Notes: generated by a model not told the origin, from the sequence alone. 64,000 bases of DNA from an uncultured Bacilli bacterium (GCA_944350425.1 CALVOX010000007.1:5617-69616), one strand, 5' to 3'. Positions 5,064 to 22,098 are shown, numbered from the stretch's first letter. Numbers and translations: made by a program.

Positions 5064-7709
5064 TTATTTTAGTCCTGTATATGCAGATCCATCTCCATTG
5101 ACATCGCCTAAAACGATGCTAGCTCCGCTTAATTGAATATCAGATATTAGTTGCCTGGGATTTTCCTCAGCACCTAAAACTTCAGTTGTTAAATCAATGA
5201 ATGCATTAACAGATGTAATAGTTTTGCAACTTAAGTCAATTGCGCCACTAGTTGCACTATCTTTGATTACATAACCAGTTGCAGTTCCATCTTTTGCAAC
5301 AACCTTATGACCAATAAATGATAACAATTCATTATATTGTTTGCCATAAACAACTGATTCTTGAACTGTACAATCACTGATTAAATTTTGATATTTTTGA
5401 TTTAACCAATTCTTTGTTTCGCTTAAGAAGTTAGCAACATCAGCATCATATAATGAAGTTAAATTAGAATTAGTTGTAAATCTATTTACTGTACTAACAC
5501 TAGCTTCACCTGAAATGATGTCGTCGACCATATCATCGAATGCTTCTTTGAAAGTTGAAACGTTATTTTCTTCAGCATTGAAGAAATCTTCGTATCCTTC
5601 TTCAACAGCAGTAACAAATGCATGAACTTTCTTATCTAATGTTCCTAAAGCTTTACCTGCGGTTTGTAAGCCTTCTGCAGCAGAAGCTAAATCTTTCATA
5701 GTGGAAAGTTTGTTATTTGTCCAAGTTGTAGTAATATCAGCTACTGTGACATAATTTGAACTTTCTAATTCTTTTGGTAAATATTTTTCACCTAATTTTG
5801 TTTTGAAATCAGCAACGACATCTTTGTATCTAGCAGATTGTCTTGTTAAAGCTACTTGTAAATTTTGTTTAACGGCAGCAACGTTTGCACATGATTTTAA
5901 TTGTCCTTCATATGTAGAAACGATGGATGCGTATAAGGAAGGATTGCTATTTTTGACTTTTGAATATACGGAATATTTTCCTAAATCAGCACCAACTTCA
6001 ACATAACCGTCTTTATTTACTGTATTACCACTTGCTAAATAAGGGTTTGCATATTCTTTATCCCAAGTTAAAACGTTAGCAACAGATTTGAAACCTACTA
6101 ATTTTTGTCCTTGATAAACTGGAGCACCGAAAATTGAACCATAAAGTGGATCTTTTGCTGCGATTTCTTCGGCTTGAGCTTTTAATGTTTTTAATGCGTC
6201 AGCAACAGCGTTTTCAATACGTTCTGCTTTGAAAGCTTGAAGACCATTAGCGACAACTGCATCTTCTAAAGCGATTTCGATTCTACCGATTAAGCCAGAA
6301 GTTGCATCAACATAGGATTCAATTGTTTTTGAATTGTCCTTATCTTCATTAACGAAGTTAGAAACAGTACCTTCAACAACGCCTTTTAATGTGACTTTAG
6401 CATTTGGAGAAGATGATAATGATTTAGCATCATCAATTTCTTTTGTGTATGAAGCAACAATACCTTCGACTAATTTTTCTTTAACGCCATCATATGTATC
6501 ATTGATTGCATCAACGCCTTCTTTTTGTAAAGCAATTTCGTTTTTGTTATTTAATGGTAATTCTGTTGCAGCACTTACTTTTGATGCATATTCTTCATAA
6601 ACTGCTCCAGGTAAAGTTTCAACTGATACACCATATTGAGCAAGTAAAGTAACCATTGCATCATAAGCTTCTTCAGCATTCTTATTTGCTTCTGGATCTA
6701 ACCAATCTTCTTTTGTAATTAAAGTTTCATAAGCATCTTGTAAACCTTCTAATGCAGTTTGCTTTCTTAAAGTTAATGTTGTTAATGTACCTTCAGCGAA
6801 AATAACTTTTGTTCCATCTTTACAAGCATGTTCGTTAACAACTTTAGAAATTTCTTCTAATGTTGTAGCAGCTTCGATAGCTGCTTTTGCAGTTTCTGCA
6901 TCTTTAGTTGAATCTTCTTCAGTGTATTTTTCGTTTGTAACACCTTCGATTAAGTCATCAACCATTGATGGTGCTAAAGATTTAGCATTATCAACCAATA
7001 ATTTATATTCATTTTGTAAAACTGTAACACCTTCTTGAGCAGCTTTTTTAGCAGCTTCTAATTTTTCAGTAGCAGTAGCACTATCTTCTAAATCGTTTAC
7101 AGCGTCTTCTACGTCGCCTTTTAATTCTTCTAATTTATCAAATAATGAATCATCAGCAAATGTAGCCTCAGCATATAAAGCATTTACACCTTTATCATCT
7201 TTTGTTCCATCTGGTGCTCTGAAAATTAAATGATCTTTATCAGTGATTTCTTCTAAGGCATTTTCTAATAAAGATTGTCCATATGAAGTTGCATCATTCC
7301 ATACTGCACCTGTTACTTGGATTGTACCATCATAAACATCAGCATCAGAAATAGTATAAGTTGAAGATGCAGGATCAAAATCAGTTACTGGTTCACCATT
7401 GATTTCAAAATAGACGAGTAAATTTTTAGTTTCATCTTTTGGTGTGAAAGTGAATGTTACTTTATCGTGTTCGCCTTCTGTAACGAAGTAAACATCTTGT
7501 TTAACACTACCACCTTGAATGTTATTGTCATTAATAACGATGACATCTTTGTAGGTTTTACCATCAACACCATCTTTACCTGGTTGACCGTCTTCCCCTG
7601 GTTTGCCTGGTTCACCTGGTGTACCTGGAGTTGTTTGATTACATGAAGAAACAACTAAACCTAAGGATAAGCATAAAGCTCCTAAAGTTAATAAATTTTT
7701 CTTTTTCAT
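5064..7709 (-). CDS. large surface lipoprotein, paralog A (881 aa to the TAA; ~1051 aa if read through), collagen-like GXY tract after the lipobox
   Basis: Signal peptide MKKKNLLTLGALCLSLGLVVSSC (lipobox VSSC), then GTPGEPGKPGEDGQPGKDGVDGK. Homologous throughout to the 8700-11687 and 11815-14835 proteins. Confidence 0.8.
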   Translation of the reverse strand: MKKKNLLTLGALCLSLGLVVSSCNQTTPGTPGEPGKPGEDGQPGKDGVDGKTYKDVIVINDNNIQGGSVKQDVYFVTEGEHDKVTFTFTPKDETKNLLVYFEINGEPVTDFDPASSTYTISDADVYDGTIQVTGAVWNDATSYGQSLLENALEEITDKDHLIFRAPDGTKDDKGVNALYAEATFADDSLFDKLEELKGDVEDAVNDLEDSATATEKLEAAKKAAQEGVTVLQNEYKLLVDNAKSLAPSMVDDLIEGVTNEKYTEEDSTKDAETAKAAIEAATTLEEISKVVNEHACKDGTKVIFAEGTLTTLTLRKQTALEGLQDAYETLITKEDWLDPEANKNAEEAYDAMVTLLAQYGVSVETLPGAVYEEYASKVSAATELPLNNKNEIALQKEGVDAINDTYDGVKEKLVEGIVASYTKEIDDAKSLSSSPNAKVTLKGVVEGTVSNFVNEDKDNSKTIESYVDATSGLIGRIEIALEDAVVANGLQAFKAERIENAVADALKTLKAQAEEIAAKDPLYGSIFGAPVYQGQKLVGFKSVANVLTWDKEYANPYLASGNTVNKDGYVEVGADLGKYSVYSKVKNSNPSLYASIVSTYEGQLKSCANVAAVKQNLQVALTRQSARYKDVVADFKTKLGEKYLPKELESSNYVTVADITTTWTNNKLSTMKDLASAAEGLQTAGKALGTLDKKVHAFVTAVEEGYEDFFNAEENNVSTFKEAFDDMVDDIISGEASVSTVNRFTTNSNLTSLYDADVANFLSETKNWLNQKYQNLISDCTVQESVVYGKQYNELLSFIGHKVVAKDGTATGYVIKDSATSGAIDLSCKTITSVNAFIDLTTEVLGAEENPRQLISDIQLSGASIVLGDVNGDGSAYTGLK

Positions 7710-7779
7710 AAATTAATTTAATCTCCTTAATGTAAAAAGAAAGTTTCTATTAAATAAGTGTTAGAAGAAAAAGAAAAAT
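7630..7779 (-). repeat. 5' cassette of paralog A (70-nt 5'UTR plus the first ~80 nt of CDS), identical to 14756-14905 as a direct repeat and inverted relative to the B copy
   Basis: Base-by-base comparison of 7630-7779 with 14756-14905. Confidence 0.8.
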
Positions 7780-7932
7780 TTAATCATATTAGCTAATAGC
7801 CATACATTTATTGTGTTTTAAAACTTTGATTTTTATATAGTTCTAAACAAAATAACTTTTTAGTTTTTAATACTAAAATTTTTGAATAATAAACCTTTGA
7901 AATAGAAACTTTTTTATTTTTAACTATTTTTT

Positions 7933-7940
7933 TGTATAAT
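7933..7940 (+). promoter_or_regulatory. extended -10 element TGTATAAT preceded by a T7 tract, inside the 1-kb ORF-free spacer
   Basis: TTTTTTTGTATAATAATC read directly. It is followed by the hairpin TGTCTTTC-TTTA-GAAAGACA at ~7976-7995. Confidence 0.3.
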
Positions 7941-8564
7941 AATCGGAGTTAAAATTCTAGTGATTATTAAAATTTTGTCTTTCTTTAGAAAGACATGATT
8001 CTAAAGAAAGTTACAAATTATTCTAAAAAAGCTCTTAAAGTGACACTAGTAGAAAATTAGTAAAAATGTATTGCATAATAGAAACTTTAATAGTATTATA
8101 TAGGTGTCGTTATGGAACGTAACTCTTTTTGTTATCGAAAAATTAATTAAAATAAATAATGATTATTGTTATTGCTATAACATACTATTAATCATTATTT
8201 AGATAAATTGATTTAGCGATAATCTTAATTAGAAAGAATTAATTAATGTATTATCTACTTAATTAATTAAGAAAGAGTGGATTAAAGATGTAATAGTTAT
8301 TGCTTCGTTTAAATTGTTTAAATAAAGATAACTATCTACATGAATCGATAACTATTTATTATATTGTCTTAAGTTATCTTTATTACTTCTTAGCAAGTAG
8401 CTAAGAAGATTAAAATCAACCTGATGTTGATTTTAATTAAACAAGTTAGATAGTACTTAATAATTGTTATTTTCTTTGGTTCACAAACTGCTATTAATTA
8501 AATAGAAATACATAAAATTAATTTGATCTTGTTAGGAAAGTTGTTAACTCTAATTTGTCAATTA

Positions 8565-8593
8565 AAAAAGTAAATAATATATAAGAGGACAAT
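8565..8593 (+). promoter_or_regulatory. sigma-A promoter for lipoprotein B (TTGTCA-17 nt-TATATA), ~107 nt upstream of its ATG
   Basis: -35 at 8565-8570, 17-nt spacer, -10 at 8588-8593. Confidence 0.5.
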
Positions 8594-8654
8594 TAGATTA
8601 GATAAGTTTACTAATCATTTGAAGTCAAATTTAGACTCGTGGTTATATTACTTA

Positions 8655-8848
8655 TTTAATAGAAAGTTTCTTTTTACATTAAGGAGATTAAATTAATTTA
8701 TGAAAAAGAAAAATTTATTAACTTTAGGAGCTTTATGCTTATCCTTAGGTTTAGTTGTTTCTTCATGTAACAACACTCCTGAAAAAGGCGATCCAGGTGA
8801 ACCAGGTGTAGATGGTCAACCAGGTAAAGATGGTGTCGATGGAAAAAC
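8655..8848 (+). repeat. ~194-bp 5' cassette of paralog B (UTR + signal peptide + GXY region), an inverted repeat of 14687-14880 with one mismatch
   Basis: Direct comparison. Identity runs through codon 51 (…GVDGKTY) and then breaks. Confidence 0.8.
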
Positions 8849-11687
8849 CTATGTCCCAATTATTGTTGTTAACGATTTAAACATCAAAGGTGGAACTATT
8901 GACCAAGACGTTTATTTTGCAGTACAAGGTGAACATGATAAAGTAACTTTCACATTCACAGCAGAAAGTGAAGGAAATGTAATTACTTATTTTGAAATTA
9001 ATGGTGAAGAAGTAAGCATTGCTCCAGATGCAACAAGTTATACTGTTGAAGATATTGATACATCTTATCCAAATGGTATTCAAGTTACTGGATTAACATA
9101 TCAAAGTCTTGATGCTTATGCTACAACCGGTGTAAAGGATTTCTTCAAAACAATTTCTGATGCTGATAATCAAGTTAAAAACGGCACTGAACCAGAAGGC
9201 TTAGTAAAGAGTGCATATTACGATGTTACTTTAGAACAACTTGTTACTGAAAAAGTCGAAGAAGTTAAAAAGGCTTATACTGATTTAGGCAAAGATGCTA
9301 CTGTAACCGAAAAAGTTGAAGCTATTAAAACAGCAACAAAAAAAGCTGAAGCTGAAATCCAAGAAGCATATGATAATTTAGTTACAGCTGCTAAAAACAC
9401 TGCTAAAACTGCATTAAAAACTTTAGATGAATCTTTAGTAAATAGCAATTATACTGAAGCAGATAGAAAAACTGTTTTAGATACAGCAAATGCTGAAGTC
9501 GATGCTGCAACTTCTTTACAAGGATTAGCTGCAGTCGTTAATACTGCTACAGCAAATCTTAAAGGCGCTAAATATAACAAATTATTCGCTCTTAAAGCTC
9601 AAGCTTTTGCTGAAATTAAATCAGCCGTTGAAGCAACTGGCTCATTTGAAAAAGATGTCGAAGCTAATAAAGATATCTTAGCAGATTATGGTATTACTGC
9701 TGATTCAAAACCAAGCGTAATCGCTAAAACATATTATGCTCAAGCTTCTGCTGCTACAGAAATTACTACTGTTGTAGTTGAAGAAAACGGAGTAAAAACT
9801 ACTTTAACATCAATTGGTAAAGAAGCTAAAGAAGCAATCGAAGCTTCAGTTGATAGCGTTAAAGGAACATTACTTGCTAATATTAAAGCTGCTTATATCG
9901 CTGAAGTCGATAATTCTAAAGTTTTAGCTGATGCTCAAAATGCTGCTTCTACAATTAAAGGTGTCATTGAAGCAACAGTTTCTAACTTTGAAGTTCAAGC
10001 AGAAGCTGACCCAACTCACTACACAATTTCAACATTTGTTTCTACAACTGGTACAGATGGTCACACAGCATTAAATTATGATTATACAGATGGCTTAATC
10101 TATAGACTTGAAAAAGCTGTTACAGAAGCTGTCGTTGCTAATGGTGTTCAAGCTTTCAATAGCGAAAGAATCGAAAATGCAAAACAAGCTGCTATTGCTT
10201 CATTCCAAGAAAAAGTTGATGAAATTAAAGCTGCTGATGCCGGATACGTTGAAGCAGTTTCTTATACAAAAGATTCATCTGGTAAGATTACACCAAAGAA
10301 AACATCTTGGGTTCTTGCGACTGTAGAAGAAACAAATGTTACTTTAGATACTCCTTTCTTTACTTCTACTGGAGAAGGTGAAGGAAAAACTTGGTCACTT
10401 GTTGCTCCAGAAACAGGATTAGTTACAGAAGAAGGTGGTAAACGCTTAACAGACTATAATGTTGACACTTGGTTAACAACATTAAAAGGAGTTACTTTAT
10501 CTTCTCCATTAGTTGTTAAACGATTTGAATCAACTCATATTGGTGATTTTGAAAAGATTTATGATAAAGCAATCGAGGTATTAACAAAATCATTAAGAAC
10601 AAAACTTGCTCTTGGTGATATTGAAGGAGAATATATTTCTTCAGATGATGTCTTAACCTCTTTCAATAATAGTGTTAAAGATAAGACTTTAAACGAAATT
10701 ATTAAGGTTGGACAATCCACATATGCTTCAAAAGAATTATTAACTAAATTAAATGATGCTGTTGAAGATGATATTGCTGCAAGGGTTGAAAAAGATAGTG
10801 CTTATGAAGCCTTATTTGGTAGCGAAGAAACATCCGTTTATAGAGAAGAATTAGGCAATTTAGTTGATTCATTAGTTTCTGGACAAGCAGGAGAAAGTGA
10901 AGTTAACGCATTCATTGAAGAAGATAATTTAAATTCTTTATACGCTCAAGATGTTGCAACATATCTTGACGATGCAAAAGATGTCTTAACACAAGTTTAT
11001 CAAAACTTAATTAGTGGAAAAGATGTCTCCGTTGATGAATACAGAACATTAACAAAACTCTATAACGATTATAATTCTTGGATTGGTCAAAAGATTAAAC
11101 AAAATTCAGACGGCGAATGGGTCCTTGATGAAAAAGGTTCAGTAGTCTATCCATGTAACACTATAACAACAGTTGATAAATGGTTAGCAGATGCTAGATT
11201 ATCTTTATCAAATGTAACAAGCGATGAGGAAGAAACAAATGAAATTACAGCTTTAAAACTTTATAGTTTAAAGACAGGAAATGCTGGTATAGATGCTATT
11301 CTAGGCATTAAATTTGATGGTAATTTAAATATCACAGGAGATGCAGAAAACCCATCTGATTACACTTCTCAAATAAGTGGCTTAGAAAATTTAAGTGATT
11401 TATTAAGTTTAGAAAAACTTACTCTAACAGGAAAAGTTGGTCTAGCAAAAAGCGTTAACAACGAAAATACTGCAGATTATCTTTGCCAAGTTACTAAAGT
11501 TGAAGTAAAGAAAGGTGAAGAAGTATCCAAAGATTTCACTTTAGAATTTGATGGAGAAAATGCAACATTTTCAGTTGATATGACTTCACTTCAAAGAGGT
11601 GTAAAATACACTGTTTCAATTACTGTTGCTTCCCCAGTAATTAATGAACAAACTTTTGCCTTCACAGTCACATTACCATCTGAATAA
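8700..11687 (+). CDS. large surface lipoprotein, paralog B (995 aa)
   Basis: RBS AAGGAGA. Lipoprotein signal with VSSC lipobox, GXY tract, and blocks shared with C (LANIKAAYIAEVDNSKVLAD, YPCNTITTVDKWLADAR). Confidence 0.85.
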   Translation: MKKKNLLTLGALCLSLGLVVSSCNNTPEKGDPGEPGVDGQPGKDGVDGKTYVPIIVVNDLNIKGGTIDQDVYFAVQGEHDKVTFTFTAESEGNVITYFEINGEEVSIAPDATSYTVEDIDTSYPNGIQVTGLTYQSLDAYATTGVKDFFKTISDADNQVKNGTEPEGLVKSAYYDVTLEQLVTEKVEEVKKAYTDLGKDATVTEKVEAIKTATKKAEAEIQEAYDNLVTAAKNTAKTALKTLDESLVNSNYTEADRKTVLDTANAEVDAATSLQGLAAVVNTATANLKGAKYNKLFALKAQAFAEIKSAVEATGSFEKDVEANKDILADYGITADSKPSVIAKTYYAQASAATEITTVVVEENGVKTTLTSIGKEAKEAIEASVDSVKGTLLANIKAAYIAEVDNSKVLADAQNAASTIKGVIEATVSNFEVQAEADPTHYTISTFVSTTGTDGHTALNYDYTDGLIYRLEKAVTEAVVANGVQAFNSERIENAKQAAIASFQEKVDEIKAADAGYVEAVSYTKDSSGKITPKKTSWVLATVEETNVTLDTPFFTSTGEGEGKTWSLVAPETGLVTEEGGKRLTDYNVDTWLTTLKGVTLSSPLVVKRFESTHIGDFEKIYDKAIEVLTKSLRTKLALGDIEGEYISSDDVLTSFNNSVKDKTLNEIIKVGQSTYASKELLTKLNDAVEDDIAARVEKDSAYEALFGSEETSVYREELGNLVDSLVSGQAGESEVNAFIEEDNLNSLYAQDVATYLDDAKDVLTQVYQNLISGKDVSVDEYRTLTKLYNDYNSWIGQKIKQNSDGEWVLDEKGSVVYPCNTITTVDKWLADARLSLSNVTSDEEETNEITALKLYSLKTGNAGIDAILGIKFDGNLNITGDAENPSDYTSQISGLENLSDLLSLEKLTLTGKVGLAKSVNNENTADYLCQVTKVEVKKGEEVSKDFTLEFDGENATFSVDMTSLQRGVKYTVSITVASPVINEQTFAFTVTLPSE

Positions 11688-11728
11688 AATAATTGTTATC
11701 TTAAATTATTTAAAAGATATTTATAAAA

Positions 11729-11762
11729 AAACAGAAAACCTATAAAAGTTTTCTGTTTTTTA
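11729..11762. terminator. bidirectional terminator (AAACAGAAAAC-loop-GTTTTCTGTTT) between convergent B and C
   Basis: 11-bp stem, A-run upstream and T-run downstream. Confidence 0.6.
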
Positions 11763-11814
11763 TTATCTTTAATTAATTAAAGATATTATAAAATAAATCT
11801 AATTAAATTTAAGA

Positions 11815-14800
11815 TTATTCACCGGTTGTAACTAATTCGGAGAAATCTAATTGAATAGTTTTTACAACATTTGTTCCAGCTGCATCATAGATTTCAATTG
11901 TTAAGAAATCTTTATCATTATAATCAGCTTTAGATCCTTCAGCACCACTAACAGCAACTAAAGTTAAGAATGAACTTGAAGTTTGATTCTTTACTTCTGA
12001 AATTCCTGTTTTGTAGTCTGCAGCAGTTGCAGATCTATAAGTTACTACTTTATATCCAGGTGTTTTTTCCCATCTGAATAAGAAGACTTGTGTGTTTTCT
12101 TTATAAGCTTCACCCCAAGAAGTACCAGCTAAATCTTTACCTGCACTAACTGTTTTGCCTTCAACTTTAATATTTACAAGTGCATCTGTTGCTGATGTAA
12201 CTTCGAACTTTAATGATGGGTCATTTTTAAGAGTGATATCAACACCACCAATTGTTAATGTTCCTTCTTCAACGCTTTCAACAACGACATCTGGTGTAAC
12301 TTCATATGTAGGTGTAGTTCCAGATTTGCTTAATGAAGTTCTAGCATCATTTAACCATTTGTTAACTGCATGTAAAGTATCACATGGATAAACGACTTTA
12401 CCATTTTCTTCATCTAATACCCAAGCGTCACTTTCGTTTTTAACAATCTTTGCACCGATGAATGAAATATAGTCATTATAAACTTTTTGATAATTTCTAT
12501 ATTGTTCAACTGAAACTAAATCCTCACTAATTTTGTTTTGATAAATTTGTGCTAAAACATCTTTAGCATCAGTTAAGTAATCGTTAACATCGCTTGCATA
12601 TAAAGAATCTAAGTTAGCTTTAGTAACAAATGATGTAACATCACTTTCACCAGCTGCACCTGTTAATAATTTAGTAATCATATCATTTACAGCAGCTCTA
12701 TATGAAGAGTTAGAAGTTGGTTGTACTGGATCTCCGCCATCGAAGAATACCTTATAACCATTATCTTTAACGTCTCTTGCTTTAACATCGCTTGCAATTG
12801 CCTTATCAAGAGTAACTAATGAATCTGATGAGGATGTAGTTGATTGAGCGACTTCTAATATTTCATCAAAAGTTTTATTCTTAACAGCTTCATCAAACTT
12901 GCTGCTTACTTGTTCTGTGCTAACATATGTGCCCTTAGTTTTAGGTAATGATTCTGCTTTTAATTCAGAAACATAGAGTGCTTTAGCAGCATCATAGATT
13001 TTTTTGAAATCACCAGTATGAGCTGTTTCCCATTTCTTAACTTCTAATACAGGGTAAGTACCAGCAATTGTTGCTTCCTTTAATTCGCCTAACCAATCTT
13101 CTACGCTATATCCACTTAATACAGCGCCTGTACCTGTTGATGTAGAAGAAGCTTCAGTAATTTGAAGACCACTTACTTCTGGTAAACTATATGTCTTTTC
13201 TGTATCACCAGTAACAGCAAATAATGGGTTATCAATTTTTACTGCAGGGTTAGCTGTACTGTCTAATACATATTCTTTAACAGTTGGAGTAACAACACCA
13301 TCTGCTTCTTTATATGAGACTGCTTTAACGTAACCTGCATCTGCTTTAATTTCATTGACTTTTGCTTCAAATGCTTCAATAGCATCTTGTTTAGCGTTTT
13401 CTAATCTTTCATTACTGAAAGCAACGTTACCGGATTGAGTAATAACTTTGGCTAAAGCTACTTCTAAGTCATAAATTAATTGACCTGATTCTGTAGTACC
13501 GACATAATCAGATAAATTCTTTGTATCCTTATCTAATACGATGTAGTTTGAACAAACAGTTTCGATAACACCTTTAATAGTTGATGCAGCATTTGGTTGA
13601 TCTGCTAAAACTTTGGAATTATCAACTTCTGCGAGATAAGCAGCTTTGATATTAGCAAGTAATGTTTCTTTAACACCCTTTGTTGCTGCGTCAATAGCGG
13701 CTTTACATTCATTAACTAAAACGATTTCGCCATCTTCGTTAACTTCAATTGTAGTTGCTTCAGAAATTTGATCTGTATATGTTTTTGCAATAGCTGCTGG
13801 ATCTTGATCTAAAGAAACACCCCATTCTTCTAATGCAGCTTTTGTTCCTTCATCAGCAAATTCTTCAACATATCCTTTAATTGCAGGAGTATCGAGGTAA
13901 GCAGCGATTTGGTTTAAAGCTTGATTCTTTAAGTTATAAAGTTTGTTGTATTGAGCATCAGCAGTTAAAGCAGAACCATTAATAATTTTACTTAAACCTT
14001 CTAATGTTGTAGCTGCATCAATAGCTGCTTTTCCTTCAGCTAAGATTGCTTCTCTATCTTCGTCTAAGAATGTTTCTTGAGTAAGTGCAGCATCTAATGC
14101 TTCTAAGTGTCCTTCAGCTAAAACTTTTTTATCAGCTAAGACTTCGGCATAAGCTTCATCAAGAGCTTTGATAGCTTCGTTAGCAGCAGTTTCACCTGCA
14201 GTTAATCTTTCTTGAATAGTAGCATCTTCTTCTAATTCTGATAAAGCAGTTCCAATATCTAATTTACCTTGTTTGTAAACACCTTCTAATGTTTTATCAG
14301 CGTATGCTGATTGTTTATCTGCAGCAGGTGTTTCAGCTGTTTCACCAACATTTGTAACGATTTGGCTATCGTTAGCGACCATTGATTTCCAGTGTTCTTC
14401 TAAAAGTTTTGTTGAAACAGATAATGCATCACCGAAGACTGCACCAGTAACTTGAATTGAACCTTGATATACATCTGCATCAGTTAAAGTATAAGAGGTT
14501 GAACCTGGAACTAAATCTGTAACTACTTTGTTATTAATTTCTAAAGAAACGATGAATTCATCAGCGTTTTCAGCTGTGAAAGTAAATGTAACGCTATCGT
14601 GTTGGCCTTCTGTTACAAAGAAAACACTTTGTTCGACATCACCACCAACGAGGTTATCATCGTGAATAACAATAACATCTTTATAAGTTTTACCATCGAC
14701 ACCATCTTTACCTGGTTGACCATCTACACCTGGTTCACCTGGATCGCCTTTTTCAGGAGTGTTGTTACATGAAGAAACAACTAAACCTAAGGATAAGCAT

Positions 14801-14835
14801 AAAGCTCCTAAAGTTAATAAATTTTTCTTTTTCAT
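11815..14835 (-). CDS. large surface lipoprotein, paralog C (1006 aa)
   Basis: First 51 aa and the 5'UTR are identical to B. The rest is a mosaic homolog of both B and A. Confidence 0.85.
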   Translation of the reverse strand: MKKKNLLTLGALCLSLGLVVSSCNNTPEKGDPGEPGVDGQPGKDGVDGKTYKDVIVIHDDNLVGGDVEQSVFFVTEGQHDSVTFTFTAENADEFIVSLEINNKVVTDLVPGSTSYTLTDADVYQGSIQVTGAVFGDALSVSTKLLEEHWKSMVANDSQIVTNVGETAETPAADKQSAYADKTLEGVYKQGKLDIGTALSELEEDATIQERLTAGETAANEAIKALDEAYAEVLADKKVLAEGHLEALDAALTQETFLDEDREAILAEGKAAIDAATTLEGLSKIINGSALTADAQYNKLYNLKNQALNQIAAYLDTPAIKGYVEEFADEGTKAALEEWGVSLDQDPAAIAKTYTDQISEATTIEVNEDGEIVLVNECKAAIDAATKGVKETLLANIKAAYLAEVDNSKVLADQPNAASTIKGVIETVCSNYIVLDKDTKNLSDYVGTTESGQLIYDLEVALAKVITQSGNVAFSNERLENAKQDAIEAFEAKVNEIKADAGYVKAVSYKEADGVVTPTVKEYVLDSTANPAVKIDNPLFAVTGDTEKTYSLPEVSGLQITEASSTSTGTGAVLSGYSVEDWLGELKEATIAGTYPVLEVKKWETAHTGDFKKIYDAAKALYVSELKAESLPKTKGTYVSTEQVSSKFDEAVKNKTFDEILEVAQSTTSSSDSLVTLDKAIASDVKARDVKDNGYKVFFDGGDPVQPTSNSSYRAAVNDMITKLLTGAAGESDVTSFVTKANLDSLYASDVNDYLTDAKDVLAQIYQNKISEDLVSVEQYRNYQKVYNDYISFIGAKIVKNESDAWVLDEENGKVVYPCDTLHAVNKWLNDARTSLSKSGTTPTYEVTPDVVVESVEEGTLTIGGVDITLKNDPSLKFEVTSATDALVNIKVEGKTVSAGKDLAGTSWGEAYKENTQVFLFRWEKTPGYKVVTYRSATAADYKTGISEVKNQTSSSFLTLVAVSGAEGSKADYNDKDFLTIEIYDAAGTNVVKTIQLDFSELVTTGE

Positions 14836-14905
14836 AAATTAATTTAATCTCCTTAATGTAAAAAGAAAGTTTCTATTAAATAAGTGTTAGAAGAAAAAGA
14901 AAAAT
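14687..14905 (-). repeat. 5' cassette of paralog C; inverted repeat partner of 8655-8848 and direct repeat partner of 7630-7779
   Basis: Direct sequence comparison. Confidence 0.8.
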
Positions 14906-14966
14906 ATCTTCCTACTAAGATTTTTTAGTAGGAAGATTGTGTAATAAGAACGTTTCTTATTACACA
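14906..14966 (-). terminator. two tandem perfect hairpins (12-bp stem ATCTTCCTACTA/TAGTAGGAAGAT and 13-bp stem TGTGTAATAAGAA/TTCTTATTACACA) between the recombinase 3' end and the lipoprotein C 5'UTR
   Basis: Stems read directly. On the minus strand they are followed by a T-rich run (ATTTTTCTTTTTC). Confidence 0.5.
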
Positions 14967-15085: not shown

Positions 15086-16288
15086 TTAATCATTAGGAGT
15101 AATCTTTTTTAAAATCTTAGTAGCTTCTTCTAAAGCTTTATTGTCATCAATATAGTTATTTTCATTAATAAAATCACTTGCTTGACCAAGAAGTGTTTTT
15201 CTCGATTTAGAAGAAGCACCAGCATTATATAATTCAGTATTAATTGATTTTCTAGAGAATCCATGAATAGTGTTATAAGGAATAGAAGCTTTTAAACAAT
15301 ATCTTTTAAGTTTTTTTCTTATTCCACTATTGGTGTAATTAAATAAGATTGCTTCTTGATTATCAATTAAGTTATTTACTTCTAAATATTCTTTAAGTAA
15401 CTTAACATTGTTATTTGTATATATAATCGTTTTATAAGAAGAAGAGGTTTTAAGTCTAGAAGTTAGTCTTCCGTTAATTTGAAGTTTCTGTCTAGAAATA
15501 TTAATTAAAGCAATATTCTTTCTATTATCAAAAGAAATATCTTTAACTTTAATACCTAAGAATTCTCCAATTCTTAAAGAAGAAAAATAAAGTAATGTGA
15601 ACATTACTTTATCATTAAAGTTGTCAATAACTTTAATTAATTTCATTAATTCTTCTTTAGAAGTATATTTATTTCTTGATACTTTCTTTATTTCAACTTT
15701 CGATTTAAATTTAACTAAGATAAGTAATAAATCATCTTTATCTTCACTATTAATTAAACGTAACTTTCTCGAATATTCAATTAACTTTATTAATATTGAT
15801 AATATTTGGTTCTTTAAATGAGTAGAAACATTTAAAGAACCAAGATAGTTTCTAAATAAAGTTAATTCTTCTATTGAATATAATCTATTTATATCATTAT
15901 TAAAGTAATTATAGATATGATGATAAAACAATCGATCTAGATTATAGATATAAGATGTTGATAATTCATCTTTTCTAGAACTGATATAAAAAGAATATAG
16001 TTTCTCTAATGTAAATAAAGAGATATCTAATCTTTTAATATTCTTATTATTCTTATTAGAAGAATTAAGAGATAATAACGAAGATGAAAGTAGTTTATCA
16101 AGATCATTAATTCGTTTTACTAATACTTTAGTTAAAGTTTCTTCTAAGTTAGAAACATAAGTTTTATCTTCAAAACTTAAGTTATCATTATCACTAATAA
16201 ATAAATGATAGTAGTTACCATTATTATCGAGTTTTATTCTCTTATCGATATAATAATGATTTGTTTTTTTATTTAAAATAACACTCAT
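15086..16288 (-). CDS. tyrosine site-specific recombinase (phage-integrase family)
   Basis: Box I-like SLRIGEFLGIKVKDI (Arg), box II-like HGFSRKS…LLGQAS, and a C-terminal Tyr in NNYIDDNKA. RBS AGGAGG. 400 aa. Confidence 0.8.
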   Translation of the reverse strand: MSVILNKKTNHYYIDKRIKLDNNGNYYHLFISDNDNLSFEDKTYVSNLEETLTKVLVKRINDLDKLLSSSLLSLNSSNKNNKNIKRLDISLFTLEKLYSFYISSRKDELSTSYIYNLDRLFYHHIYNYFNNDINRLYSIEELTLFRNYLGSLNVSTHLKNQILSILIKLIEYSRKLRLINSEDKDDLLLILVKFKSKVEIKKVSRNKYTSKEELMKLIKVIDNFNDKVMFTLLYFSSLRIGEFLGIKVKDISFDNRKNIALINISRQKLQINGRLTSRLKTSSSYKTIIYTNNNVKLLKEYLEVNNLIDNQEAILFNYTNSGIRKKLKRYCLKASIPYNTIHGFSRKSINTELYNAGASSKSRKTLLGQASDFINENNYIDDNKALEEATKILKKITPND

Positions 16289-20469: not shown

Positions 20470-22098
20470 ATGGATGAAGATAAAAGTATAAAAGAAAATA
20501 AAAATTACTATAACGAATTCGTTAAATTATATAAAGAAATAAGAAAAAAAGAGAAAGATAAACCTAAACTTCTCCTTCATGTTTGTTGTGCGGCTTGTAG
20601 CGCTTATCCTTTAGTTTTTCTTATAGATTTATTCGATATTACTATTCTTTATACTAATTCTAATATCTATCCTAAAGAAGAATTTGATAAAAGACTTTAT
20701 TATCTTAAAAAATATGTTTCGGATATAAATACCAAATTTAAAACTCATATCGAGATTGTTGTTGATAACTATCATTATGATACATTTAAAAAAGATCTTG
20801 AACCTTATAAAAATGAAAAAGAAATGGGTACAAGGTGTAAAATCTGTATCGCTAAACGTTTTAATCAATTATTTGAATATGCTAAAAACAATAACTTTAA
20901 ATATGTAACAAGTGTAATGTCTATATCAAGAAATAAAGATGTTAACTATCTTAATGAACTTGGTTTATCTTTAGAAAATAAATATAAAGACTATGATATT
21001 AAATATATTGTAAGTGATTTTAAGAAAAATAATGGGCAAGATCTTGGGATTAAAATTGCAAAAGAATTTAATATTTACCGTCAAGATTATTGCGGATGTG
21101 AATATTCTTTATCAAAAGAACATAAACCAAGAGAAGTTAGTGTTATCGTACCTATCCATGGTGTTTATGAATATTTAGATAAATGTTTAGATTCTTTAGT
21201 CCATCAAAATATAGAAGTAAGTTATGAAGTCGTTTGCGTACTTGATTCACCTCTTGAACAAGATAGAGAAATTACATATAAGTATCAAACTTTATTCCCT
21301 GATTTAGTTACTGTACATGAAGTTAATTTTAAAGATTTAAGTGAAGTTAGAAACTATGGCTTGCTTCATTCTTATTCTAGATATGTCGCATTTGTTGATG
21401 GCGATGACTACGTCTCGCCAACTTATCTAAAAGATTTTTATGAAGATATTGTAAAAAAGAATTCTGATATTGTGGTTTGCAATTACTATATGGCTTATCC
21501 GAATAAAATAAAAAAATGTTTTCCTTCAAATCCGCTTATCTTTAAACCTCGAAATAGTTTAGAAGCTTGTAGAAGTTTATGCCGTGACATCCATTTAAGA
21601 GGATATGTTTGGAATAAGTTTTTCAAAAGAGAAATTATTGAAAATAAGTCAATCTTCTTTATGTCATTTAGGTATTGCATTGAGGATTATTTCTTTGTTT
21701 TTTCTTATCTTCTTAATATCAATTCTATTTCTTTTATAAATAAATATAACTATTATTACGTTCAAAGGCCAAGTAGCGTCGTTCATAAAGATGATGGTTC
21801 TATTATAAAAAAACTTATTAATTCTCAATTTCTAGTAAAATATTACGCTTTTAAAGAGAATAGACCAGAAACTACTAAAATTTCTTATTTCTTTAAAGAA
21901 ATAGCCTTAATTTATTCAATTATCATTCAAAGAAAAAACTTACAAATTCCTTTAAAAGAATTTATTTCAAGTACAAGAAAACAAATCAAAAAGATTAAAA
22001 AAAATGAATATCTTTACGAAGGAGAAGACTGGGAAAAAGTAGTCGCTTCATATATTGAAAAACAAAACAAAGATTTTTATATCGACAAAGGAAAATAA
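20470..22098 (+). CDS. queH: fusion protein: N-terminal epoxyqueuosine reductase QueH (DUF208), a family-2 glycosyltransferase domain, and a ~90-aa tail
   Basis: QueH Cys motifs LLHVCCAACS, RCKICIAKRF, YCGCEYS, then the GT2 start SVIVPIHGV…VDGDDY. The 542-aa frame has no stop and no internal Met/RBS at the junction. Confidence 0.7.
   Translation: MDEDKSIKENKNYYNEFVKLYKEIRKKEKDKPKLLLHVCCAACSAYPLVFLIDLFDITILYTNSNIYPKEEFDKRLYYLKKYVSDINTKFKTHIEIVVDNYHYDTFKKDLEPYKNEKEMGTRCKICIAKRFNQLFEYAKNNNFKYVTSVMSISRNKDVNYLNELGLSLENKYKDYDIKYIVSDFKKNNGQDLGIKIAKEFNIYRQDYCGCEYSLSKEHKPREVSVIVPIHGVYEYLDKCLDSLVHQNIEVSYEVVCVLDSPLEQDREITYKYQTLFPDLVTVHEVNFKDLSEVRNYGLLHSYSRYVAFVDGDDYVSPTYLKDFYEDIVKKNSDIVVCNYYMAYPNKIKKCFPSNPLIFKPRNSLEACRSLCRDIHLRGYVWNKFFKREIIENKSIFFMSFRYCIEDYFFVFSYLLNINSISFINKYNYYYVQRPSSVVHKDDGSIIKKLINSQFLVKYYAFKENRPETTKISYFFKEIALIYSIIIQRKNLQIPLKEFISSTRKQIKKIKKNEYLYEGEDWEKVVASYIEKQNKDFYIDKGK

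Follow-up and report, generated by a model that had tools for sequence, protein, structure and literature searches.

The locus described here lies in a stretch of 64,000 nucleotides (nt), one strand, from an uncultured Bacilli bacterium (GCA_944350425.1, CALVOX010000007.1:5617-69616). The whole of this stretch is termed the window, and coordinates are window positions. Three paralogous lipoprotein genes, A, B and C, begin with a common sequence block, each has a copy of one 15-nt site in its 5′ untranslated region (UTR), and a tyrosine recombinase gene adjoins them (Table 1). Three rearranged isoforms with breakpoints at this site are found, and the architecture is conserved in related strains. 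Very probably, the locus is a shufflon, i.e. a site-specific system of multiple inversions that brings about phase variation in the three surface lipoproteins. An earlier sequence-only reading had described an open reading frame (ORF)-swapping switch made up of B and C. Its core idea is supported, but a scope of two genes is too small, as it overlooked the third gene, A, and the recombinase gene at 15086-16288.

The genome has approximately 28% G+C. Tryptophan is encoded by TGG, and TGA is read as a stop codon (standard code); thus, strictly speaking, the host is not a mycoplasma. Among species-level genomes in GTDB the nearest is an uncultured Bacilli metagenome-assembled genome (MAG), whose recombinase is 89% identical.

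Table 1. Features of the lipoprotein locus, in window positions
Feature	Position	Strand	Description or basis
Gene A	5064-7709	minus	ORF for an 881-amino acid (aa) lipoprotein paralogue; lipobox VVSSC, short collagen-like Gly-X-Y run
Site sA	7744-7758	minus	CTTATTTAATAGAAA in the 5′ UTR of A; upB/A junction in L015
Invertible cassette K, 890 nt, between sA and sB	7760-8649	either	opposite orientation in L015, junction 8649/7759
Small hairpin in the poorly conserved left part of K	7976-7995	minus	stem kept, loop alone altered in L039
K-right, 614-nt non-coding block, proposed expression site (promoter and long structured leader)	8036-8649	plus	conservation
Candidate promoter TAGAAA-18-CATAAT	8050-8079	plus	consensus match; unchanged in four genomes
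Giant hairpin, 144 bp	8202-8559	plus	folding and four-genome pairing
Promoter-like motif TTGTCA-17-TATATA	8555-8583	plus	-10 differs in relatives
Shared 5′ block of B (site, UTR with AAGGAG, start codon, signal peptide, Gly-X-Y run)	8650-8852	plus	repeat comparison
Site sB, crossover interval	8651-8665	plus	CTTATTTAATAGAAA; contexts diverge at 8649/8650
Gene B	8700-11687	plus	995-aa lipoprotein
Terminator-like hairpin between convergent B and C	11726-11761		hairpin scan
Gene C	11815-14835	minus	1006-aa lipoprotein
Shared 5′ block of C	14683-14885	minus	repeat comparison
Site sC	14870-14884	minus	exact copy of CTTATTTAATAGAAA
Two hairpins between the recombinase gene and sC	14906-14966	minus	putative terminators or insulators of the silent upC context
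Tyrosine recombinase gene, integrase type, 400 aa	15086-16288	minus	PF00589

Three lipoprotein genes with a common 5′ block

Genes A, B and C have the same bases from 57 nt before the ATG through codon 24, with the exception of one single-nucleotide polymorphism (SNP). The block comprises the 57-nt upstream stretch, the start codon, the lipoprotein signal peptide MKKKNLLTLGALCLSLGLVVSSC and a short Gly-X-Y run. The proteins diverge past the block: A shows 37% identity to B and C overall, with the first 23 residues identical, and B and C are approximately 37-41% identical outside the block. The lipobox of the lipoproteins is VVSSC, and the products are predicted to be surface-anchored lipoproteins of about 1000 aa.

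In A, B and C the lipobox Cys is followed by the Gly-X-Y run GDPGEPGVDGQPGKDGVDGK (B residues ~28-49, window 8781-8846), which is near-invariant across the family. A weak match to the Pfam Collagen family is found for gene A only; apart from this, searches of Pfam, NCBIfam and PDB sequences assign the cargo proteins to no family. The lipoprotein family is small, with 31 clusters that are metagenomic without exception. In a comparison of 27 of its members, which otherwise show about 30-35% identity, the signal peptide is at least 90% invariant. In an AlphaFold model of B (mean predicted local distance difference test score 78) an N-terminal beta-sandwich leads into a large helical body. Comparison of the model with PDB folds gives no significant match, the best being Ig-like domains at an E-value of 0.04 or worse.

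The shared block gives rise to the repeats of the locus. An automated repeat search finds inverted arms at 8643-8852 and 14683-14892 (210 nt, 97% complementary). Compared base by base, the homology extends over 8650-8852 and 14683-14885, i.e. 203 nt with three mismatches (8666 G/C, 8843 A/T and 8849 C/T); the longest perfect stretch is 176 nt (8667-8842). The mismatch at 8666 is in the UTR and that at 8843 in the coding sequence. The near-perfect inverted repeat of the sequence-only reading does exist, but it is longer than had been proposed, and the arms given there (8655-8848 and 14687-14880) contain two mismatches and not one. A third copy of the block is at the 5′ end of gene A, where 7639-7791 repeats 14765-14917 in direct orientation (153 nt, 97%) and 7639-7766 is an inverted copy of 8643-8770 (128 nt, 97%). 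A 48-nt core of the block has three exact copies in the window, where none is expected.

The 15-mer CTTATTTAATAGAAA has exactly three copies in the 64 kb, one per gene, and 34 nt of UTR, which include the ribosome-binding site, separate it from the ATG. The copies at A, B and C, termed sA, sB and sC, are in the minus, plus and minus orientations, respectively. They delimit two invertible segments, cassette K and segment S, which contains the B and C bodies. The base that precedes CTTATT in related genomes is A, C or T, and the block is invariant from CTTATT onward. A weak 8-6-8 dyad can be read at sB (TTATATTA / CTTATT / TAATAGAA); it would fit a core site whose spacer is asymmetric and 6 nt long, but could be a chance occurrence in AT-rich DNA.

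Two other sequence relationships should be pointed out. The right half of the site, the exact 12-mer AATAGAAACTTT, has four copies in the 64 kb, all at this locus. Two copies are within cassette K (7901-7912 and 8077-8088), and 7893-7965 resembles a decayed plus-strand copy of the UTR; they may serve as accessory binding sites or be what is left of a lost gene. Secondly, an inverted pair of 13-26 nt brackets the UTR in the contexts upstream of sA and sC, termed upA (7767-7792 with 7682-7707) and upC (14893-14905 with 14821-14833). Its members are ATTTTTCTTTTTC upstream and GAAAAAGAAAAAT at codons 2-5, and the pair is not present in the context upstream of sB (upB). Sequestration of the start codon by the 13-nt pair ATTTTTCTTTTTC/GAAAAAGAAAAAT in silent contexts was considered and rejected: the fold is unusual at upA (z -2.9), but not at upC (z -0.75), and in each of the contexts the same stretch is available for pairing with the shared UTR.

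Isoforms and the position of the crossover

Other assemblies of the window strain were recovered by exact-protein look-ups. Scaffold_313 of ena:ERZ28614751 is identical to the window, with the order A(-) B(+) C(-) recombinase(-), and L007 is identical to the window, with B at upB. In scaffold_870 of ena:ERZ28614154 (L008/L012) the order is A(-) C(+) B(-) recombinase(-), and it is C that is at upB. Here window positions 8650-14885 are inverted with 100% identity over 6236 nt, and the flanks are collinear at 99.96%. A third arrangement is found in NODE_5089 of ena:ERZ24773420 (L015), which has gene A and what lies past it (window 7759 to 1) at 100% identity, preceded by 7703-8649 in the opposite direction. 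Cassette K is thus flipped in L015 such that its upB end abuts A. From the same sample comes a 6.4-kb contig, NODE_17423 (L009), in which upC adjoins B at one end and C at the other; therefore both orientations of the B-C segment are present in one sample.

A second lineage, approximately 95% identical, is without gene A and has extra genes by the recombinase. It also shows both orientations: positions 1495-7729 of L045 equal 9951-16185 of L042 at 100% over 6235 nt, with the flanks reversed. The inverted isoform that the sequence-only reading had predicted, i.e. one in which the C body is behind the B upstream region, is therefore present in L012, and the second lineage has its counterpart.

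With two invertible segments, four arrangements can be listed. K+S+, with B at upB, is that of the window, and K+S-, with C at upB, is that of L012. In both K- states A is at upB; K-S- is represented by L015 in combination with the left end of L009, and K-S+ is not seen on its own.

The point of exchange can be placed closely. The upA, upB and upC contexts diverge immediately 5′ of ACTTATT, which sets the outer limit, and the inner limit is set by position 8666, which is G in gene B and C in genes A and C. The G allele accompanies the B body behind upB and behind upC alike, and upB is also seen joined to blocks with the C allele. As the 8666 allele is always found with its gene body, the exchange takes place within 8650-8665, or 16 of the 203 nt. 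Breakpoints of the three kinds of rearrangement map to this interval and its equivalents, 35-50 nt before the ATG. The sequence-only reading had proposed that recombination within the repeats inverts 8849-14686; an inversion does occur, but with the exchange at the outer-edge 15-nt site, so that the whole repeat travels with the segment (8650-14885).

The position of the breakpoints indicates site-specific rather than homologous recombination, because all are at the outer-edge site although 176 perfectly matched nt lie further in. One might nevertheless ask whether general, RecA-type recombination between the 200-nt repeats is responsible and the recombinase gene is the remnant of an unrelated integrase. 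A perfect identity of 176 nt does suffice for homologous recombination, and, elsewhere, recombinases related to this one are ordinary integrases found by tRNA genes. However, every recombinant junction was exchanged within the outermost 16 of 203 nt, for which the random expectation is about 8% per event, and the 8666 allele never leaves its gene body. In addition, the homology block starts exactly at CTTATT in all strains, and an intact recombinase gene is retained at the locus across strains that are 84-99% identical. A RecA-type origin of the inversions is thus quite improbable.

A different concern is that a repeat-bounded segment was resolved arbitrarily by assembly programs and has one fixed orientation in the organism. 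Short-read assemblers cannot traverse a perfect repeat of 176 nt and often break here, and the orientation of a scaffold depends on read pairs. Indeed, the locus systematically breaks short-read assemblies. Five Logan contigs with the recombinase of the window (L002-L006) all stop 210 nt past its stop codon (window 14876), within the shared block, and contigs of close variant strains (L033, L035 and L036) stop 212-217 nt past the recombinase stop codon. Many family genes are on gene-sized contigs of 3-4 kb, which fits repeats at the gene ends. Nevertheless, the SNP at 8666 is only 16 nt from the unique flank, so that upB with the C allele and upC with the G allele must exist in the reads (k-mer of at least 21). 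The k-mer of the junction between upB and the C allele is absent from the window isoform. The recombinant junctions are new sequences spanned by any k-mer of 21 or more, and therefore are not an assembler's arbitrary path through the repeat. The inversion of K involves a block of only about 122 nt shared with A, which single reads can span, and the same breakpoints appear in independent studies and in two strain lineages. Assembly artefacts are therefore scarcely credible as the source of the isoforms.

Cassette K and the proposed expression site

The two parts of cassette K differ in conservation. In three other genomes K-right shows 92.5-98% identity, and its 5′ boundary is sharp and common to them. 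Identity in the left part of K amounts to only 40-70%, and in the same relative the miaA region is 85% identical. K-right is single copy in the sequences searched and has no ORF above 34 aa, and an Rfam search over 7600-8800 gives chance-level matches only, far below the gathering scores.

The conserved block has a pronounced secondary structure. Folding of 8086-8700 gives -152.2 kcal/mol, compared with -103.7 +/- 4.3 for shuffled sequences (z -11.4); the minus strand gives -110.8. The giant hairpin alone has -108.5 kcal/mol on the plus strand and -72.7 on the minus strand, and is thus 36 kcal/mol more stable on the plus strand. Its 144 bp include 17 G.U pairs, against one C.A mismatch. This asymmetry points to transcription of the plus strand, towards the gene, and the promoter should therefore lie upstream of 8202. 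In the four genomes 98.9% of the cells of the hairpin alignment are paired, compared with 36-50% when the partners are slid; 14 pairs survive one-sided changes and two survive changes on both sides. The covariation itself is weak with four close sequences, as 11 of 500 shuffles reach the same level. The hairpin block may represent a long leader or a non-coding RNA of the expression cassette. A multicopy miniature inverted-repeat transposable element was also considered for the hairpin and discarded; K-right is single copy, and the arms are not detected as a DNA-level repeat by BLAST.

Two promoter-like sequences are of interest. The motif TAGAAA-18-CATAAT, a candidate by consensus match alone, lies about 15 nt inside K-right and is the same in four genomes. 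The second, TTGTCA-17-TATATA, was noted in the sequence-only reading as a good sigma-A promoter. The motif is present, but at 8555-8583 and not at 8565-8593, and the description as a good promoter is doubtful: the -10 hexamer is without the T at position 6 that the promoter scanner requires, and the hexamers are not conserved in relatives, the -10 being TATTGA, TATGGA or TATAGA in L039, L041 and L042. Moreover, TTGTCA is within the 3′ base of the hairpin. At best this motif would be a second promoter. The true transcription start is probably further upstream, because the hexamers are not conserved and are situated at the 3′ base of a conserved hairpin.

The contexts upstream of the other two sites have a different character. 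The two hairpins previously placed just beyond the repeat copy of C are confirmed at 14906-14937 (minus strand) and 14938-14966. The related MAG L016 keeps both, and in one of the two a T-A pair has changed to C-G in a compensatory manner. Contexts upA and upC share a T-rich tract, ATTTTTCTTTTTCTTCTAAC, and neither has a -10-like element. Taken together, these features suggest that upB is the sole expression site and that upA and upC are silent.

A working model can be outlined. The adjacent recombinase would join inverted sites. Recombination between sB and sC would flip the 6.2-kb segment with the B and C bodies, and recombination between sA and sB would flip the 0.9-kb cassette K. Only upB, the right end of K, would act as an expression site, with the promoter and the long structured leader in the 614-nt block. 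The upA and upC contexts would be silent, each with the T-rich tract, which is preceded at upC by the two putative terminators. Four DNA states could arise in this manner, and the cell would make A, B or C. The promoter is then not fixed, as had been assumed in the sequence-only reading, since the 890-nt cassette that would carry it also flips, towards gene A, in L015.

Perhaps the DNA inverts with no consequence for expression, i.e. all three genes are transcribed from within or near the shared block, and the inversions are neutral or serve to homogenize the family. The assignment of the promoter is inferred only, and the three genes are complete and have their own ribosome-binding sites. In addition, a family gene in L039 that is without the site keeps its UTR and signal peptide downstream of another gene. 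Set against this, the 34 nt from site to ATG are too short for a promoter plus a leader, upC would be insulated by two conserved terminators, the T-rich tract of upA and upC is without a -10-like element, and upB is backed by a conserved block of 614 nt that is read as transcribed. Inversion without a switch in expression is considered unlikely, although it is less improbable than the two alternatives discussed above.

Several points weigh against a shufflon with a single expression site. Sites sA and sC are direct repeats, and therefore recombination between them, by the same enzyme, would delete the locus. The proposed dyad around CTTATT is weak and possibly due to chance. The isoforms are taken from short-read metagenome assemblies, i.e. 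at the level of assemblies and not of reads, and the isoform tally covers the contigs viewed, which are a part of the similar places, and gives no frequencies. The promoter assignment rests on consensus, conservation and structure, with no strong candidate, and promoter-like sites in the region are fewer than in shuffled sequences (54 compared with 72). Finally, the role of the recombinase is deduced from adjacency, and its relatives at 40-49% identity are ordinary integrases by tRNA genes or are without large inverted repeats.

The recombinase, variant loci and related systems

The recombinase ORF is intact and directly upstream of C. The protein matches Pfam PF00589 (Phage_integrase) over residues 209-384 (E-value 5.8e-14), and its best full-length match is the PHROG integrase phrog_1 (residues 20-395, E-value 1e-20). 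R239, K280, H342, R346 and Y379 are invariant in 20 homologues, and Q369 is at the usual second His/Trp position; these putative residue roles are assigned by motif. The protein is not a Xer equivalog, as the NCBIfam scores are 29 bits for XerC (cut-off 335), 24.5 for XerD (330) and 52 for XerA (220). Related strains have the recombinase at the same position, beside a DJ-1 gene.

More distant homologues, 40-49% identical and found in GTDB genomes, have no large inverted repeats nearby, and therefore the shufflon appears to be confined to a close lineage. Two homologues at 46-49% identity, in other MAGs, immediately adjoin a tRNA gene (L018, 10930-11010; L020, 11000-11075), as do ordinary integrases of integrated elements. 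Because the distant homologues adjoin tRNA genes or are without nearby inverted repeats, the comparison suggests that the enzyme is a domesticated integrase, and it is this recombinase that would carry out the inversions. No relative of the recombinase is found in IMG/VR. In the JGI metagenomes a scan with the site plus UTR pattern gives no match, and a recombinase profile detects one 2-kb contig.

Related genomes display variations of the locus. L039 has at least four family genes, of which one tandem gene has no 15-nt site but keeps its UTR. At this gene (9826-10000) approximately 26 nt that include the site are deleted, and the ribosome-binding site and signal peptide are kept; such a copy would be locked. 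Tandem family genes at this position and in L040 (6750-6830) have a fourth upstream context, in which ATCGATTATTATCAAATTTAATACATC directly precedes CTTATT. The S-like segment of L040 has three genes. In L041 (3126-5768; ena:ERZ24773532 NODE_379) two ISL3-family transposase genes are in place of B and sC, which leaves a two-site version with C at upB where only K can flip. In L034 (11386-15045; ena:ERZ16268064 scaffold_307) an A-like gene is directly behind upC and has a frameshifting deletion of 25 nt in the signal-peptide region. The gene has a different 3′ end, followed by G-rich repeats (GGGGGTTTATGG) at the end of the contig. It may be the decayed product of an sA × sC deletion.

Two genes of the window outside the locus also merit mention. 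A 542-aa ORF at 20470-22098 joins the Pfam domains QueH (epoxyqueuosine reductase) and Glycos_transf_2, an unusual pairing, and is embedded in a queuosine cluster (QueT, TGT and QueA). The 460-aa ATPase_2/DUF234 gene at 1253-2635 is 98% identical in L039, whereas the adjoining miaA region is only 85% identical, which suggests recent exchange between strains.

The closest parallels are in mycoplasmas. Their loci vpma, vsp and vsa have a conserved 5′ UTR and signal peptide, with recombination sites in the UTR and an adjacent tyrosine recombinase, and inversions bring silent genes to one promoter (PMC2268961). The vpma/Xer1 system of Mycoplasma agalactiae and the vsp/Mbr system of Mycoplasma bovis most resemble the present locus: they encode paralogous lipoproteins with a conserved 5′ UTR and signal peptide and a divergent remainder, the sites are in the 5′ UTR next to a tyrosine recombinase gene, and terminators are drawn within the locus (PMC2268961). 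The likeness would be one of architecture and working principle, and is not a claim that the recombinase or site is homologous to Xer1, Mbr or their recombination sites (RS).

There are a number of differences from vpma and vsp. The host belongs to an uncultured gut Bacilli lineage known from MAGs, in which TGA is a stop codon. The cargo proteins of about 1000 aa belong to no Pfam or NCBIfam family and are without the tandem repeats of Vpma and Vsp, and the recombinase is a 400-aa protein of the integrase type that fails the Xer models. There are three genes here compared with six or more there, and the proposed expression site has a 614-nt conserved leader with a 144-bp hairpin. In addition, the same sites serve both the exchange of gene bodies and the flipping of the putative promoter cassette.

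In the vsa/HvsR system of Mycoplasma pulmonis, inversions likewise bring silent genes to one expression site, with a tyrosine recombinase gene nearby (PMC2268961). At the locus described here all three genes keep the UTR, ATG and signal peptide, and it is thus not of the vsa type. The silent vsa genes are without the promoter-proximal 5′ end, which exists once.

Cassette K has its own parallels in invertible promoters, such as fimS of E. coli, the capsule and lipoprotein invertons of Bacteroides and mpl of Mycoplasma penetrans, where a short segment bounded by inverted sites flips. K, however, would toggle between two divergent genes and not turn a single gene on and off; its promoter content is inferred, and at 890 nt it is much longer than is typical. 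Several sites and multiple inversions by one tyrosine recombinase are also found in the R64 shufflon (Rci) and the type I hsdS shufflons (pneumococcal PsrA/CreX) (PMC9881135, PMC7096588). These swap 3′ coding segments on a constant 5′ part, whereas here entire ORFs change places through an exchange in the 5′ UTR. A literature search for switches of this kind in Acholeplasma or RF39 found nothing, and one on the origin of the samples gave no relevant result.

The working principle thus appears to be known already from mycoplasmas, and what seems new is the host lineage, the cargo, the recombinase type and the long structured leader. Tentatively, and with rather less confidence than in the shufflon itself, the locus can be viewed as an independently evolved counterpart of vsp and vpma in standard-code gut Bacilli. 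It would have arisen around a domesticated phage-type integrase, with a movable cassette whose new leader of about 600 nt, with the 144-bp RNA hairpin at its core, is transcribed into the selected lipoprotein gene. The hairpin leader might serve in RNase III processing, in insulation or in the control of dosage.

On this interpretation, lipoprotein shufflons with a single expression site, which until now have been characteristic of a few pathogenic mycoplasmas, would also be found in standard-code uncultured gut commensals. The states of the switch can be read from public metagenome assemblies, and the arrangement accounts for the breaks that assemblies of this lineage show here. The locus, which combines a defined 15-nt site with a candidate recombinase, would be a compact natural three-way switch that is both testable and reusable. 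The feature most deserving follow-up is the conserved hairpin leader, a putative regulatory element tied to a phase-variation cassette.

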